Assembly (NCBI RefSeq): GCF_001945605.1
Contig: NZ_MPKA01000065.1
Location: 1 to 32,000 of the forward strand
From: Dubosiella newyorkensis
Lineage (GTDB): Bacteria; Bacillota_I; Bacilli_A; Erysipelotrichales; Erysipelotrichaceae
Direction: 5' to 3'
Length of the DNA stretch: 32,000 bases
The position numbers were made by a program, and so were the translations under genes. Under the pieces are notes generated by a model, which searched no databases, was not told the origin of the DNA, and was given only the letters and a program-made list of their open reading frames with translations. Positions 3,120 through 7,722 of this stretch are shown piece after piece (position 1 is the first letter of the stretch; each line of letters begins with the position of its first letter).

Positions 3120-3710
3120 TTATTCTTTAATTTGAGCGAGATGAGAAACGATCGAATCGACGATCGTAAAGTTTTTTCCATCATAATCAACTTCGTAGAT
3201 CACGCAGTTTATGAATCGGATCGCATCTTTAGCATGGTCGGGATCGATCCTTTCTAGTAAATTCATAAGATTGGCGCCATGGGCGACGATCAAGATCGTT
3301 TTGGCATCGTCTTCATGAACGATGTCGTTGAGCGTCTTTTCCATACGATCTTGAACTTTTTGAGGGTCTTCGCCACCAAATTGCGTATACGACGTGTTCA
3401 AAAGATCGTGTCCAAACGATAAGATCAAATCAGTGCTCGCTCCTTCTAAGCGTCCGAAGCCAAATTCTTTCAATCCTTCATATCTTGTATAAGGAAGGTC
3501 GCTAATGTGCTTTAAGGTCTCCTCGGTTCTTAAAAGTGTCGAACAGCACGCTTTGTCAAATGTGATCTGCCGGTTTCTAAAATACTGCCCGACCGCTTTT
3601 GATTCCGCGACTCCTTTGGGAGTGAGAGGCGAATCGCACCAGCCTTGGATCTTATGTTTTTGATTGAACAGCGTTTGTCCATGTCGGACAAGAAACAATT
3701 TTTTACGCAT
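3120..3710 (-). CDS. Histidine phosphatase (phosphoglycerate-mutase-like) family protein
   Basis: LFLVRHGQTLFN (RHG catalytic motif), GWCDSPLTPKG and VAHGANL. Start placed at ATG 3710 (MRKKLFLVRHGQT). Confidence 0.85.
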   Translation of the reverse strand: MRKKLFLVRHGQTLFNQKHKIQGWCDSPLTPKGVAESKAVGQYFRNRQITFDKACCSTLLRTEETLKHISDLPYTRYEGLKEFGFGRLEGASTDLILSFGHDLLNTSYTQFGGEDPQKVQDRMEKTLNDIVHEDDAKTILIVAHGANLMNLLERIDPDHAKDAIRFINCVIYEVDYDGKNFTIVDSIVSHLAQIKE

Positions 3711-4301
3711 CCTCTTCCTCTTTGAGATCTTTGACGTGTTCATCGATCACTTGTTTGAGATTGAAATGTCCGTCTTCATATTCGTATTCGTAGATGATGC
3801 AGTTGTTGAATTTTCGCATTTTTCTCGCTTTGGATGGCTCGACTCGGTTGGCGAAGCGAAAAGAGTTGGATCCATGCATCACGATCAAGATCGACTTGGC
3901 GTCATCTTCTTCCATGATCGTTCTAATCGCTTTTTCGACGCGGTCTTCCACTTGTTTTGGCGTCTCTCCTCCGAATTGAACGTAATAGGTATTGAGATCG
4001 TCTTTTTTTTGACAAGCTAGATCGGTGCTCTCGCCTTCTAGAAGGCCATAGTTGAATTCTTTGAGCGCATCGTATCTTGAATAATCGAGATCGGTAATAT
4101 CTTTGAGTGTTTCTTCGGTTCGATGCAGCGTTGAGCAGCACGCTTTATCGAATACGACGCCTCTTTTTTCAAAATACTCTTTGTGGCTTTGGCTTGGCGA
4201 TGACCGAGTTTTGTGAGGGGCGAATCGCACCAGCCTTGGATCCGATTCTTTTTATTGAATAAAGTTTGTCCATGACGAACGATATATAATTTCTTTTGCA
4301 T
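3703..4301 (-). pseudogene. Frameshifted tandem paralogue of the histidine phosphatase
   Basis: The N-terminus MQKKLYIVRHGQTLFNKKNRIQGWCDSPLTKLGHRQAKATK (frame of ORF 4038-4352; GGAGG RBS before ATG 4301) continues as EYFEKRGVVFDKACCSTLHRTEETL... in the frame of ORF 3703-4230. Alignment to the downstream paralogue places a 1-nt loss near 4180-4183 (acaaag where acaaaag is expected). Confidence 0.75.
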
Positions 4302-4376
4302 GCTCTTTCCTCCATACGCTTCTATATTAGAATCGTTCGAGGTGATTTTCAATTTTTAATGTTCTAGAATGAAGCT

Positions 4377-5060
4377 ATGAATACGTATTCCAATACGATC
4401 GATCAAATTCAAGTCGATTTGATCGAATCTTCTCAAAAAAATGCGCCAACCGTGGTTTTGATCATGGGAATCGATGAACATGAGTCCGTTCTTTCTCGAG
4501 CCCGCAAACAACAATGTCCTTCCTTTCACCTTGTCTCGCTTTCTCATTTCAATTGGGATCAAGATCTTTCTCCTTGGCCAAGCAAGTCTATAATTTATCC
4601 GAACGATGATTTTGCGGGAAAAGCCAATCAATTTTTGAAAACAATCGAAACTAAGATCAAAGATTGGGTCGATTCCTTGCTTCCTGTAGAAGCGGGTCCT
4701 TGGATCATCGCGGGGTATTCGATGGGTGGATTGTTCGCAATGTATTGTCCGTATCGTTCTAGCTTGTTTACAAACGTATGTTGCGTGTCAGGTTCTGTTT
4801 GGTATCCTGGTTTTGAGAGCTTTGCCACCACCGAAACTATGATCAAAAAGCCAAAATCTGTCTATTTTTCTTTAGGAAGAAAGGAAATTCAGGAACGAAA
4901 TCCATATTTACAGACGACTGGCAAGATCATGGAAAGCTTGGAAGAGGATTATAAAAAGAAAGGGATCAAGACAACGATGGTTTGGAACAATGGAAACCAT
5001 TTTACCGATCCTGTAGGGCGAATGGTCGACGCATTGATCTGGACGTTGCATCAAAAATAA
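4377..5060 (+). CDS. Alpha/beta hydrolase (esterase-family)
   Basis: 227-aa ORF with the nucleophile elbow GYSMGG, and a C-terminal NGNH motif consistent with a serine esterase. Confidence 0.7.
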   Translation: MNTYSNTIDQIQVDLIESSQKNAPTVVLIMGIDEHESVLSRARKQQCPSFHLVSLSHFNWDQDLSPWPSKSIIYPNDDFAGKANQFLKTIETKIKDWVDSLLPVEAGPWIIAGYSMGGLFAMYCPYRSSLFTNVCCVSGSVWYPGFESFATTETMIKKPKSVYFSLGRKEIQERNPYLQTTGKIMESLEEDYKKKGIKTTMVWNNGNHFTDPVGRMVDALIWTLHQK

Positions 5061-5073
5061 CCAAACAAAAAAA

Positions 5074-5457
5074 TCACTTTTTTAAGGAAATCATCTTTCC
5101 AATCCCTACGATCAAAATCAAAGGCAATGCTTTCAAAAAGCCGAAAAGATAGATCCAATAAAGACTGATCAATCCTACCACGATCCATGAAACAAGCCTC
5201 CCAGAGAGATACGCTTTTTGAATTATATTTTGATTTGTCACATTCAACATTGTTTTCGCGCAAACGAATTCGAACGCTCCGATCAGGCCAAGAATGAGCA
5301 AGACAAGAAAAGCTGTATTCCAGTTTTTTTGATAGCCAACAAAAACAAATAGAAGCAAGCACACGAGGATATAAGGAACGATCGATTTGATCGTCCGTTC
5401 ATAGTTTTTTTGAGGATCTTTACTAATCATCAAGAGATGAAACCAAGATTGATTCAT
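5074..5457 (-). CDS. Small integral membrane protein, function unknown
   Basis: 127-aa ORF with 3-4 hydrophobic helices. Native GATC-rich composition. Confidence 0.55.
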   Translation of the reverse strand: MNQSWFHLLMISKDPQKNYERTIKSIVPYILVCLLLFVFVGYQKNWNTAFLVLLILGLIGAFEFVCAKTMLNVTNQNIIQKAYLSGRLVSWIVVGLISLYWIYLFGFLKALPLILIVGIGKMISLKK

Positions 5458-5477
5458 CCGTATTTTTCCTTTCTAAA

Positions 5478-5508
5478 ATGCAGGTCAACATAATAAGCTG
5501 ACCTGCAT
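5478..5508 (-). terminator. Hairpin terminator downstream of the secreted-protein gene (left edge of the islet)
   Basis: 10-bp stem ATGCAGGTCA / TGACCTGCAT with an 11-nt loop. Only a short T tract on the minus strand (cat-TTTag). Confidence 0.45.
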
Positions 5509-5545
5509 AATAATTTTTCAAGTTTATAAATCTTTTCGCTTATAA

Positions 5546-6121
5546 TTATGAAGGCCGAACTGGATCAAACCATGCTCCATTTACTGGTCCGTAGATGAGC
5601 ACATTCCGTGGACTATAAGCTCGAATATTCATATTAATTGCCTTTTTATAATAGGATCCTGTGTAAGAAGAATAGTAATTTTCTATGCTTTTATATTGGG
5701 TCATTGTTATAAACAGAGGATTTCCTTCTGTTGCAATTGCAGCCGCAATACTACCAGCAATCGTCCAACCTATACCTGGAATAGTTGCTACAATGGCGCC
5801 TGCCATTGCTACTGCGCCTCTCCATGGTATTTCATAAGATAAGTTGATTGCAGAATTTGAATCTAATGTAGCTTGAGGTTGAGGATAATCAATAATTGTA
5901 GGGATTATTTCTTCACCATCAATAGTAAGAATATGGGTTGTATGATTAATCGTGATGATATGTTCTTCACCATAACCATATGCTTTGATTTGTTCAGTAT
6001 AAGCATCGATCATTTTAGATTCAAATGTTATATCTTGTTTTGATTCAGCAAATATAGGAGAAAAGCTAAATAATGATAGTAAAAAAACAAGTATAGAAGC
6101 CAATAGTTTATTAATTTTCAT
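5546..6121 (-). CDS. Secreted protein of unknown family with a Gly/Ala-rich hydrophobic core
   Basis: Start at ATG 6121, preceded by GGAGG (6125-6131 region). Signal peptide MKINKLLASILVFLLSLFSFSPIFA|ESKQ. Internal GAVAMAGAIVATIPGIGWTIAGSIAAAIATEG segment. Confidence 0.7.
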   Translation of the reverse strand: MKINKLLASILVFLLSLFSFSPIFAESKQDITFESKMIDAYTEQIKAYGYGEEHIITINHTTHILTIDGEEIIPTIIDYPQPQATLDSNSAINLSYEIPWRGAVAMAGAIVATIPGIGWTIAGSIAAAIATEGNPLFITMTQYKSIENYYSSYTGSYYKKAINMNIRAYSPRNVLIYGPVNGAWFDPVRPS

Positions 6122-6214
6122 TTTACTCCTCCATTTTCTATAATCGTCAGACATACTTTTAAATATTAAGTATTATAAACTAAATTTAAGAGCTCTTGAT
6201 ATCATTGAGATAAG

Positions 6215-6373
6215 TTATTGACCTAATTCTAAACCATGAAGTGGAGCAAGTTGAGTAATCCAACAATAATCCTTAATATTATGTTGAACACAAAGCTTTT
6301 GCTCGACTTGAACACCACCAAACATATAGAATAGGATTGAAACAGTTAAAACTGTTCTTTTTAATGACTTCAC
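6215..6373 (-). CDS. Candidate unannotated 52-aa secreted pro-peptide (below the ORF-track size cut-off)
   Basis: AAAGGAGA RBS, 5 nt, then GTG at 6373. Translation: VKSLKRTVLTVSILFYMFGGVQVEQKLCVQHNIKDYCWITQLAPLHGLELGQ*. It has a basic n-region and a hydrophobic h-region. It lies upstream of, and co-oriented with, the secreted-protein gene, and divergent from the HTH regulator. Confidence 0.35.
   Translation of the reverse strand: MKSLKRTVLTVSILFYMFGGVQVEQKLCVQHNIKDYCWITQLAPLHGLELGQ
6337..6365 (+). promoter_or_regulatory. Putative sigma-A promoter of the regulator gene with an operator-like inverted repeat in the spacer
   Basis: TTGAAA (6337-6342), 17 nt, TTTAAT (6360-6365). The inverted repeat AACAGTT-aa-AACTGTT occupies 6341-6356. 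Confidence 0.4.
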
Positions 6374-6412
6374 TAAGATCTCCTTTCTTTTCCCAGGTTA
6401 TGATTCTATTAT

Positions 6413-7696
6413 ATGATTATGGAAAAAAATTTAAAACATATTAAAATTCGAGAACCATATAAGTCGGCTTCTCCTTTCCTTTTTGGATTTTATGAAAAAA
6501 TTAAGCGAAAAGAATTGGGGTACTCATTAGATAATGTCTCCAAAGACTTATCCATCTCAAAAGGAAATTTGAGCGAAATGGAGAATGGACTCCGAATTAT
6601 GAAAATTGAGATCTTTCATCGTTTTTTGACTCGCTACAATATTGAATTTGCTGAAGATTTGAAATACTTAGTTGAAATGAGAGAGATTCTAATTCAGATT
6701 TTTGAAGCATTTTTAAGATTTAATCGTAAAAAACAAGAAAAAGTTCGAGAACAATTCGAAAGTATGGATAGAAGCTGGGAAAATACATCTGGCTTTTTAA
6801 TTGGTCTACTTATTGAGTATTTTATTCGATCTGTGTTAGATCATAAAAGTCAAGAAGACGTATTTGAGCTTTTAGTTTCGAGTGAAAGCTGCTTATCAAA
6901 TGATGAAAAAGCTCTATTATATATGATTCGTGGAATGGAAGGACGGCGGAATACAACATTTAAGAATAAGGAAACCTTCTTTGAACAAGCACTAAATTAT
7001 GTAGATGAGAAAGAAATGAATGATTTGGAAGCACTGATTGAGTATTATCAAATAATGGATGAAATTCGCTCGGGTTCTACTTTCGAGGTTTATACAAAAT
7101 GTAGTCAAGTGCGGAACAAATTTTATAACTCACATAATTATATTCGGGCTCTTTATCTTGATAATCTAGAAGCGGTAAGTATTACTTATTTAAGAGCTTA
7201 TTCAAGTGCTTATCGTCGATTTGAAACCTTACTTTACAATATGGAATATGTAGATGATCCTTATTTAAGATTTTGCGTTGTTCAAAATGCTATTTTGGTA
7301 CTATGTGTTCTGAAAGAATATAAAAAAGCTTTAGAATGGATGAAGAAGGAAAGAAATACTTTTTCTTATGGTTTGTCAAATTTTGTGTTCGCGCCATATT
7401 GTTTTTATATGTTAGATGATTTAGAAGAGGCGAATAATACGATTAAAAAGATCAAACCCTATGTAAAGGATCAAAGTGATCAACTTCTTTTGAACATTAT
7501 AAAATATGCGATTGAAAACAATGAAAATGCCTTTTTTGAAGATTCTCAACGATTGCTGATTTTGGATCAAAAAAACAAGAAGCAAGAAAATATAGAATTA
7601 ACATATCGTTTCATGATCTCCTTTTATAAAAAAAATGGCATTGAGTCAAGACAAATCAAATTACAAGAAGAATACATTTCGTTCTTAACAAGATAA
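6413..7696 (+). CDS. XRE-type HTH regulator with a long helical-repeat (TPR-like) C-terminal domain; RNPP/NprR-like
   Basis: 427 aa. The N-terminal LGYSLDNVSKDLSISKGNLSEMENGLRIMKIEIFHRFLTRYNIEF is an XRE HTH. The remaining ~350 aa are helical and rich in Y/L/E/K, as in TPR-type peptide-binding domains. Confidence 0.7.
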   Translation: MIMEKNLKHIKIREPYKSASPFLFGFYEKIKRKELGYSLDNVSKDLSISKGNLSEMENGLRIMKIEIFHRFLTRYNIEFAEDLKYLVEMREILIQIFEAFLRFNRKKQEKVREQFESMDRSWENTSGFLIGLLIEYFIRSVLDHKSQEDVFELLVSSESCLSNDEKALLYMIRGMEGRRNTTFKNKETFFEQALNYVDEKEMNDLEALIEYYQIMDEIRSGSTFEVYTKCSQVRNKFYNSHNYIRALYLDNLEAVSITYLRAYSSAYRRFETLLYNMEYVDDPYLRFCVVQNAILVLCVLKEYKKALEWMKKERNTFSYGLSNFVFAPYCFYMLDDLEEANNTIKKIKPYVKDQSDQLLLNIIKYAIENNENAFFEDSQRLLILDQKNKKQENIELTYRFMISFYKKNGIESRQIKLQEEYISFLTR

Positions 7697-7718
7697 AAGC
7701 TCCCATCAGGGAGCTTTT
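7695..7718. terminator. Bidirectional terminator shared by the regulator gene and ppdK
   Basis: AAAAGCTCCC-atca-GGGAGCTTTT between the convergent stops at 7696 and 7723. Confidence 0.7.
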
Positions 7719-7722
7719 GATT

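Follow-up and report, generated by a model that had tools for sequence, protein, structure and literature searches.

A conserved 52-codon gene divergent from a helix-turn-helix regulator points to a peptide quorum-sensing family in gut Erysipelotrichaceae

A small gene of Dubosiella newyorkensis points to a previously undescribed family of peptide quorum-sensing systems in gut Erysipelotrichaceae. The gene is a 52-codon open reading frame (ORF) at 6215..6373 on the minus strand of a 32,000-nt stretch of DNA (contig NZ_MPKA01000065.1, positions 1 to 32,000; hereafter the window), and it is a real, conserved coding gene under selection for a small peptide of secreted type. We consider it probable that it encodes the pre-pro-pheromone of an RRNPP-type quorum-sensing module, with the product of the adjacent divergent gene, a 427-aa regulator (6413..7696, plus strand), as its receptor. 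A model that read the DNA letters without database searches (the sequence-only reading) had proposed an RNPP-type pro-peptide beside an RNPP-like regulator, and this proposal is supported by the predicted fold of the regulator, by the adjacency of the two genes in eight lineages, and by co-variation between the peptide tail and a block of the regulator.

The start signals and the parts of the peptide can be read directly from the DNA. A ribosome-binding site (RBS), AAAGGAGA (aaaggaga), occupies 6379..6386 on the minus strand and is followed by a 5-nt spacer, tctta (6378-6374), and by the GTG start codon (6373-6371), which is the earliest start codon past the upstream in-frame stop; the ORF ends in TAA. 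Direct reading and the ORF listing thus reproduce exactly the RBS, the 5-nt spacing, the GTG, and the translation given by the sequence-only reading, and they confirm that the ORF lies divergent from the regulator gene and upstream of a co-oriented gene for a secreted protein, which starts at 6121. Alignment of upstream regions places a GGAG-type RBS at the equivalent spot in every homologous locus. By charge and hydropathy, codons 1-20 (6314..6373) encode a signal-peptide-like N-terminus, MKSLKR followed by TVLTVSILFYMFGG. As had been described, its n-region is basic (charge +3) and precedes a hydrophobic stretch, TVLTVSILFYMF(GGV), of 12-15 residues; the h-region measures 15 residues and reaches a peak 11-residue Kyte-Doolittle hydropathy of 2.29. 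Simple rules find an n-region of +2 or +3 and an h-region of 15-17 residues in 5/6 family members examined; for the peptide of Allobaculum sp. JKK-2023 (hereafter JKK-2023) the rule could not delimit the h-region, though its hydrophobicity equals that of the others. Codons 26-38 (6260..6298) encode a conserved core, K-L-C-V-Q-H-N-I-K-D-Y-C-W, that contains the two cysteines already noted nine positions apart (C28 and C37). Codons 44-47 (6233..6244) form a semi-conserved hinge, P-L-H-G, with a putative role in processing, and codons 48-52 (6218..6232) encode a hypervariable C-terminal tail, LELGQ, which is the most variable part of the family and the candidate mature pheromone.

Conservation, not length, marks this ORF as a gene. 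Seventy ORFs of at least 30 aa are listed in 7 kb, several of them of about 52 aa, so that a 52-codon ORF is not beyond chance; we count this one as real because it is conserved, and its length by itself proves nothing. Between the window and Firmicutes bacterium M10-2 (hereafter M10-2), the proportion of differences in the peptide gene is 0.85 at synonymous sites (pS, saturated) and 0.30 at non-synonymous sites (pN). Between M10-2 and Dubosiella muris, the ratio of non-synonymous to synonymous substitution rates (dN/dS) is 0.27 for the peptide gene and 0.30 for the regulator, so the synonymous bias that the sequence-only reading had proposed as a check is present. The D. muris peptide has 50 aa, and its difference in length from the M10-2 peptide is an in-frame two-codon indel; in strain L019 the start codon is ATG in place of GTG, with one further synonymous change. 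These patterns, together with the conserved RBS, argue against the view that the ORF is untranslated and that overlapping DNA signals, such as a promoter or operator of the regulator, account for its conservation. That view gains from the layout of the locus, in which the start codons of the two divergent genes are 39 nt apart; because this gap is so short, the regulator promoter must be inside or near the peptide ORF, and an ORF of this length is not rare by chance. Against it, a protein hidden Markov model (HMM) recovers 48-57-aa ORFs with the same four-part layout from unrelated contigs, the peptide-cargo transcript has no significant RNA structure (z = -0.36), and an Rfam scan of the peptide region gave no family above gathering score. 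We regard a noncoding explanation as exceedingly improbable. A further expectation, that automated calling would miss the ORF, is not borne out: public assemblies already have the gene called, as a 52-aa gene in L001-L003 and as database entry P0001. Within the region, a 15-nt inverted repeat (6162-6176 / 6266-6280) was set aside as AT-rich chance.

The peptide belongs to a compact family that shares an invariant core. A word-indexed database search with the single peptide returned a sole match, P0001, which is near-identical (M17I). Relatives were reached only through synteny with the regulator and then through profile searches. The peptide HMM, run against 1.84 billion representative proteins, gave 16 matches at E<=1e-3, nearly all of 48-57 aa, and the peptide had no family match in Pfam or NCBIfam. 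In an alignment of 19 representatives (48-57 aa), C28, H31, D35, and C37 are invariant in 19/19, the consensus of the core is P-K-x-C-x2-H-x3-D-aromatic-C-W, and all share a layout of four parts: the signal-like N-terminus, the invariant core, the semi-conserved P-x-G-G hinge, and a hypervariable C-terminus of 5-7 residues. Source organisms that carry a family-level name are all Erysipelotrichaceae; M10-2 is listed as unclassified Bacillota. Viral contigs, phages, and plasmids, scanned with the peptide, the regulator, or the locus, yielded no relatives.

Peptide and regulator genes travel together across divergent lineages. In 8/8 lineages with known context, the peptide gene divergently adjoins a gene for a regulator of ~410-430 aa with a helix-turn-helix (HTH) domain and tetratricopeptide repeats (TPRs), at regulator identities to the window copy that fall as low as 21-24%. 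The lineages are the window with L019 and L020; M10-2; L027/L028/L029; D. muris (L004, L007, L021, L022); Erysipelotrichaceae bacterium 51-3 with an Allobaculum metagenome-assembled genome (MAG; together L009, L010, L023); JKK-2023 (L024-26, with a second locus, L031); L032; and L033. M10-2 carries the same four-gene module as the window, with a regulator of 419 aa, a 52-aa ORF divergent from it, and genes for proteins of 194 aa and 126 aa. In L008 (4049-4765) the regulator is cut down to 238 aa. A tblastn search found no paralogue of the regulator or the peptide within the window.

The predicted fold of the 427-aa regulator matches the HTH-TPR type of RNPP receptors. By sequence, the regulator reaches no Pfam family at threshold and no NCBIfam match, and the Pfam TPR models are blind to its repeats; matches to HTH_3/HTH_19/HTH_31 over residues 29-83 recur in 12/12 homologues, each below gathering score (best E 5.8e-5). 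When all PDB sequences were searched with a profile, the best E was 0.019, to unrelated proteins, so that fold comparison alone was informative. The AlphaFold2 model (predicted local distance difference test, pLDDT, 88.6; predicted template modeling score, pTM, 0.82) consists of a four-helix HTH domain followed, after residue 105, by ~8 TPR-like helix pairs, with no signal peptide or membrane segment. The predicted DNA-binding domain spans residues 23-74 (6479..6634, plus strand; model helices 23-35, 39-45, 50-57, and 65-74). In a Foldseek comparison of the model with the PDB, the top 28 matches are phage Rap, NprR, RapF/H/I/J, AimR, and PlcR (E ~1e-5, TM score 0.5-0.7). Four residues, N242, Y243, R245, and N251, show no variation, not even across receptors of 24-27% identity, and all lie within a central TPR block at residues 196-270 (6998..7222, plus strand). 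In the TPR grooves of Rap, NprR, and PlcR complexes, the peptide backbone is gripped by conserved Asn and Arg, while neighboring residues confer specificity; by analogy, the invariant N/Y/R/N set of the window regulator would fit this groove chemistry.

The peptide tail and the central block of the regulator change together, in a pattern that looks like pherotype co-variation. M10-2 and the metagenome contig L027 are nearly identical outside two hot spots (14/1644 nt differ, 0.85%). The first hot spot is the peptide gene, with 10/159 nt different (P=1.4e-6), concentrated in codons 38-52 (7/48 nt, P=1.8e-7; six non-synonymous and one synonymous) and also reaching residues 29 and 41-43 beside the core. 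The second lies in regulator codons 190-256 (pS 0.57, pN 0.29): 26/33 of the residue differences between the two regulators fall within residues 201-256 (M10-2/L027 numbering), and the three successive segments of the protein are 99%, 61%, and 99% identical. About 720 nt of near-identical sequence separate the two hot spots. The block corresponds to residues ~196-270 of the window regulator, where it spans model helices 205-220, 224-239, and 243-259, and from the comparison of block and flank identities it is the putative peptide-specificity region. It comes in two allelic types. Type A (window, M10-2, and D. muris) pairs with the tails LELGQ, LELGK, and KELGQ, and type B (L027 and P0004) pairs with EEFGK. 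Between L027 and P0008 the block is 80% identical, compared with 56% elsewhere in the protein, and block type thus ignores the phylogeny of the rest of the protein. From these comparisons, the specificity block appears to move by recombination as a cassette.

Under the quorum-sensing reading, the 52-aa product would be exported by Sec and cleaved near Gly19/Gly20. The resulting pro-peptide of ~32 aa would be trimmed outside the cell, probably after the P-x-G-G hinge, to release its C-terminal 5-7 residues (LELGQ or slightly longer), and this oligopeptide would be re-imported, presumably via an Opp-type permease. Inside the cell it would bind the TPR groove around residues 196-270, with the invariant N242/Y243/R245/N251, and the regulator would then act at a conserved DNA box (described below), leading to autoinduction of the peptide gene and to expression of co-transcribed secreted cargo that varies by lineage. 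The invariant Cys-x2-His-x3-Asp-x-Cys core may serve in this scheme as a pro-domain for folding, stability, or processing.

The invariance of the core also suits a different signal. In this alternative the peptide signals as an entire folded unit of ~30 residues, or through its Cys-loop core, and the fold would be kept either by a disulfide between Cys28 and Cys37 or by a metal ion coordinated by the Cys/His/Asp/Cys set; the core would make contacts to the conserved residues of the receptor, with added specificity from the tail, or the peptide would act at the cell surface. C28, H31, D35, C37, and the flanking aromatic residues stay invariant in the 19 representatives while the receptors diverge to 21-24% identity, which is unexpected for a disposable pro-region. 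Cys/His/Asp/Cys is a classical set of metal ligands, and the M10-2/L027 hot spot touches residues 29 and 41-43 beside the core. However, RNPP grooves in the Rap, NprR, PlcR, and AimR complexes hold extended peptides of 5-10 residues, a folded 30-residue ligand would require import because the receptor lacks a signal peptide or membrane segment, and both the strongest variability and the co-variation fall in the final 5-7 residues after the P-x-G-G hinge. A variable, mature C-terminal part is moreover the usual layout of RRNPP pro-peptides (PMC10075063). We judge a folded ligand to be unlikely. A related idea, that the core is a disulfide- or metal-stabilized folded module which makes the signal or its maturation depend on redox conditions in the gut lumen or on the metal available there, we put forward tentatively and hold to be unlikely. 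If it were true, the family would represent a structurally new class of RRNPP pheromone, either a mini-protein or a conditionally processed pro-peptide, with recombining specificity cassettes that make pherotypes in gut Erysipelotrichaceae.

Several observations weigh against a pheromone that resides in the tail and is read by the adjacent regulator. That the core stays invariant while receptor identity drops to 21-24% could point to the core, rather than the tail, as the functional part; to our knowledge, the pro-regions of known RRNPP peptides are not conserved in this way, and we know of no described RNPP pro-peptide with such an invariant Cys/His/Asp/Cys core. Of the Sec-type leader claimed by the sequence-only reading, the basic n-region and the h-region stand, but by a simple rule the window copy has no canonical -3/-1 signal-peptidase site (MFG/G, FGG/V); homologous peptides do have canonical sites (SFG/G, GTA/I, SAA/V). 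No Opp genes lie within the window. In the fold comparison, generic TPR proteins begin at E ~5e-4, which sets the RNPP receptors (E ~1e-5) apart only modestly, and the co-variation of tail and block is based on two allelic types only.

The remaining difficulties concern the linkage itself, and two of the linked copies, the L009 type and L031, are rearranged or decayed. In L009/L010/L023 the peptide gene stands beside a duplicated 5' fragment of the regulator, and a lipoprotein gene separates it from the intact regulator; in L031 (2500-2906), the second JKK-2023 locus, the regulator is broken by insertion sequence (IS) transposases. Individual peptide genes are also decayed or atypical: in the MAG contig L029 (~1452) the loss of 2 nt from an A-run that follows the start codon shifts the frame, the tail is swapped for unrelated sequence directly after Cys-Tyr in L011 (87-275), and the start position reads ACG in L010 (2779). 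The expectation that the same ORF would sit beside homologues of the regulator is borne out in the eight lineages but fails for L005, L012, L015, and L018, whose regulator homologues have no family peptide nearby. These peptide-less regulators (L005, L012-L014, L015-L017, L018) are 40-55% identical, and their divergent neighbors encode a 684-aa peptidoglycan-binding/glycoside-hydrolase-like protein, a pair of ATP-binding cassette (ABC) exporter proteins, a membrane protein with DUF2975, and a protein of 71 aa. A motif search found no tail-like small ORFs near them, and they may be orphan receptors.

The genes downstream of the peptide gene bear on whether the peptide is a signal or an effector. 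The first encodes a secreted protein of 191 aa (5546..6121, minus strand) with a clear signal peptide, MKINKLLASILVFLLSLFSFSPIFA/ESK, and a Gly/Ala-rich hydrophobic stretch that includes a glycine-zipper-like segment, WRGAVAMAGAIVATIPGIGWTIAGSIAAAIAT. It is listed as a 202-aa ORF from an upstream ATG; the length of 191 aa counts from the true start, the ATG at 6121, which has GGAGGAG just before it. The protein is 72% identical to 194-aa proteins of M10-2 and L027 and has no family match and no sequence relative in the PDB; its single-sequence AlphaFold model (pLDDT 40.4) is unusable. The second gene, the last of the presumed operon, encodes a polytopic membrane protein of 127 aa (5074..5457, minus strand) that shares 52% identity with its 126-aa counterpart in M10-2, encoded at the corresponding position, and has no family match; it is possibly an immunity or accessory protein, and the pair resembles a toxin/immunity pair. 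On the minus strand, no promoter-like or terminator-like site lies between the peptide gene and these two genes, and the three therefore probably form one operon.

This arrangement would also suit a peptide that is no ligand but an effector secreted under regulation, for instance a small Sec-dependent bacteriocin, a toxin, or a surface-active peptide, encoded by the first gene of the regulator's target operon. The peptide gene is co-oriented and probably co-transcribed with the secreted Gly/Ala-rich protein and the small membrane protein, some regulator homologues face divergent genes without any peptide, and the short loop between two cysteines is reminiscent of the disulfide loops in class II bacteriocins. 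Members of that class, however, are cationic and amphiphilic, whereas the post-signal peptides of the family have a net charge of -6 to 0 in 5/6 lineages (+2 in D. muris) and a grand average of hydropathy (GRAVY) of -0.25 to -1.39 in 5/6 (+0.16 in JKK-2023). The peptide gene has no immunity or exporter gene as a constant neighbor, and while peptide and regulator persist as a pair, the cargo differs between lineages and between strains of the window's species. The window, M10-2, and L027 share the 191-194-aa secreted protein and the membrane protein of ~127 aa; D. muris has an unrelated secreted protein of 225 aa, and JKK-2023 has other secreted proteins and lipoproteins. In L019, a metagenome strain that belongs to the window's species (98.2% identical; 4220-5726, compared with the window from ~6080 leftwards), the peptide and regulator are kept and unrelated genes follow the signal peptide of the cargo, so that the cargo was swapped at a breakpoint within the cargo gene. 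Nor can an effector role explain the joint exchange of tail and TPR block in strains that are otherwise 99% identical. We rejected the bacteriocin-like alternative of the sequence-only reading on charge, hydropathy, and variable neighbors, and consider an effector role of any kind quite improbable.

The control region between the divergent genes contains a conserved candidate operator. The promoter-like site of the peptide gene (6408..6435, minus strand; TTTAAA, 16 nt, TATAAT; 10/12 match) overlaps the first codons of the regulator, and its -10 element aligns across clades. About 36 nt upstream of the -10 element lies box 1, GTTCTCGAA (6447..6455, minus strand), with the core TTC-N2-GAA, a candidate binding site of the regulator. 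The box is invariant in 8/9 aligned upstream regions from three clades, including those of regulators only 27% identical, and variants read GTTCGCGAA (a perfect TTCGCGAA palindrome), GTTCTCAAA, and GTTCTTAAA. It also occurs at the regulator start in the peptide-less loci L005, L012-L014, and L018, and is missing in L015-L017. In the L009 clade (L009 2459-2649 and 3568-3753; also L010 and L023), a stretch of ~190 bp is directly duplicated (85-91% identity); it holds the box, the promoter, the RBS, the first codons, and the 5' end of the regulator, and fronts both the peptide gene and the lipoprotein gene. A second exact GTTCTCGAA, box 2 (6744..6752, minus strand), lies inside the regulator coding sequence at codons V-R-E (residues 111-113), at a distance of 297 nt from box 1 in the window and of 297-309 nt in related loci. 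Its exact codons are kept in 7/9 family members, whereas a single codon is kept in just 7/79 columns with an invariant residue. Box 2 may be a second operator, for looping or autoregulation.

The module shares features with several described RRNPP systems. NprR of the Bacillus cereus group, at ~423 aa with an N-terminal HTH and about nine TPRs, matches the window regulator in size and architecture, and its structures 5dbk and 4gpk rank with the best fold matches. NprX, too, is made as a pro-peptide (~43 aa) that begins with a Sec-type signal and carries its mature part close to the C-terminus. The two systems have no detectable sequence similarity, however; nprX follows nprR on the same strand, whereas the window peptide gene is divergent with overlapping promoters, NprX lacks a conserved Cys/His/Asp core, and the NprR DNA box is unlike GTTCTCGAA. 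In the PlcR-PapR system, the C-terminal residues of PapR co-vary with TPR residues of PlcR in four pherotypes; the window family likewise has two tail types tied to two TPR-block types, and in both a palindromic box precedes an autoinduced peptide gene (autoinduction being putative here). PlcR differs in its smaller size (285 aa, with five TPRs) and matches the fold less well (TM score 0.25-0.40), papR lies downstream of plcR, and the specificity block of the window family, unlike that of PlcR, appears to move as a recombination cassette.

Members of the Rap-Phr and AimR-AimP systems (Phi3T Rap 8rsu/8rst, RapF 3ulq/4i9c, AimR 6jg9/6hp3) are also among the best structural matches; in these systems Opp re-imports the mature signal, which consists of the last 5-6 residues of a pro-peptide exported by Sec. 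Rap, however, has no HTH, aimP and phr lie downstream of the receptor gene, the pro-region of the window family is strongly conserved, and the window family has no relative in the phage or plasmid collections scanned. The divergent layout is instead that of Rgg-SHP (group I) and PrgX-PrgQ, in which peptide and receptor genes diverge from close or overlapping promoters. Rgg and PrgX are ~285-320 aa and are not among the top fold matches, and SHP and PrgQ are peptides of ~20-25 aa without a classical Sec signal that use PptAB and Eep. RRNPP_detector (Bernard et al. 2023, PMC10075063) defines its candidate subfamilies by a TPR receptor beside a small ORF with a basic N-terminus, a hydrophobic center, and a C-terminal mature part, and this working definition also suits the window module with its predicted TPR receptor and putative mature tail.

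In our best reading, the module represents a new subfamily of RRNPP type whose Cys/His/Asp/Cys pro-domain is unusually conserved and whose specificity alleles resemble cassettes. We treat it as a separate subfamily within this known kind of system because no sequence-level membership was found, the surveys consulted are silent on it, and Pfam TPR models miss its repeats. HMM or pairwise comparison (Pfam, NCBIfam, PDB profile) gave no homology to the described subfamilies Rap, Rgg, NprR, PlcR, PrgX, AimR, ComR, or TprA. The supplementary files of PMC10075063 contain no Erysipelotrich, Allobaculum, Dubosiella, Faecalibaculum, or Ileibacterium, and its main text none of the first three; the large RRNPP surveys consulted make no mention of Erysipelotrichaceae, Allobaculum, or Dubosiella, and their main texts none of cysteine. 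Literature searches turned up no report of peptide quorum sensing from Allobaculum, Dubosiella, or relatives. Since Pfam TPR models miss the repeats, HMM-based RRNPP screens and catalogs probably miss this family and other whole families. Allobaculum, Dubosiella, and relatives are common in the gut of mice and companion animals, and the module is a candidate cell-cell signaling system in them that appears to control variable secreted cargo, including possible toxin/immunity pairs, lipoproteins, cell-wall hydrolases, and ABC exporters. The tail and TPR-block cassettes offer natural variants for studying the co-evolution of signal and receptor, and the conserved core prompts one to ask what function such a pro-domain has in a system of this kind.

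The surroundings of the module in the window are ordinary chromosomal genes, among them those for PPDK, IleRS, TyrRS, SepF, and ETF. A bidirectional terminator-like hairpin lies 3' of the regulator (7694..7719, plus strand; hairpin scan); in D. muris-type loci (L004 2445-2989, L030 1413-2059), a YoeB/ParE-like toxin-antitoxin pair lies directly 3' of the regulator. Elsewhere in the window, the second of two tandem His_Phos_1 genes (3703-4352, minus strand) is split into ORFs of 104 aa and 175 aa by a 1-nt deletion (GCCACCAAAG to GCCA-CAAAG). The gene is intact as a 216-aa ORF in a metagenome contig that is 98.4% identical (L020), and the split copy is either a pseudogene or a sequencing error. 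Near the start of the window, a terminator-like hairpin at 137-168 with an almost perfect 15-bp stem (GCCTCTTTAATAGCA..TGCTATTAAAGAGGC) lies upstream of a gene for a 460-aa membrane protein.

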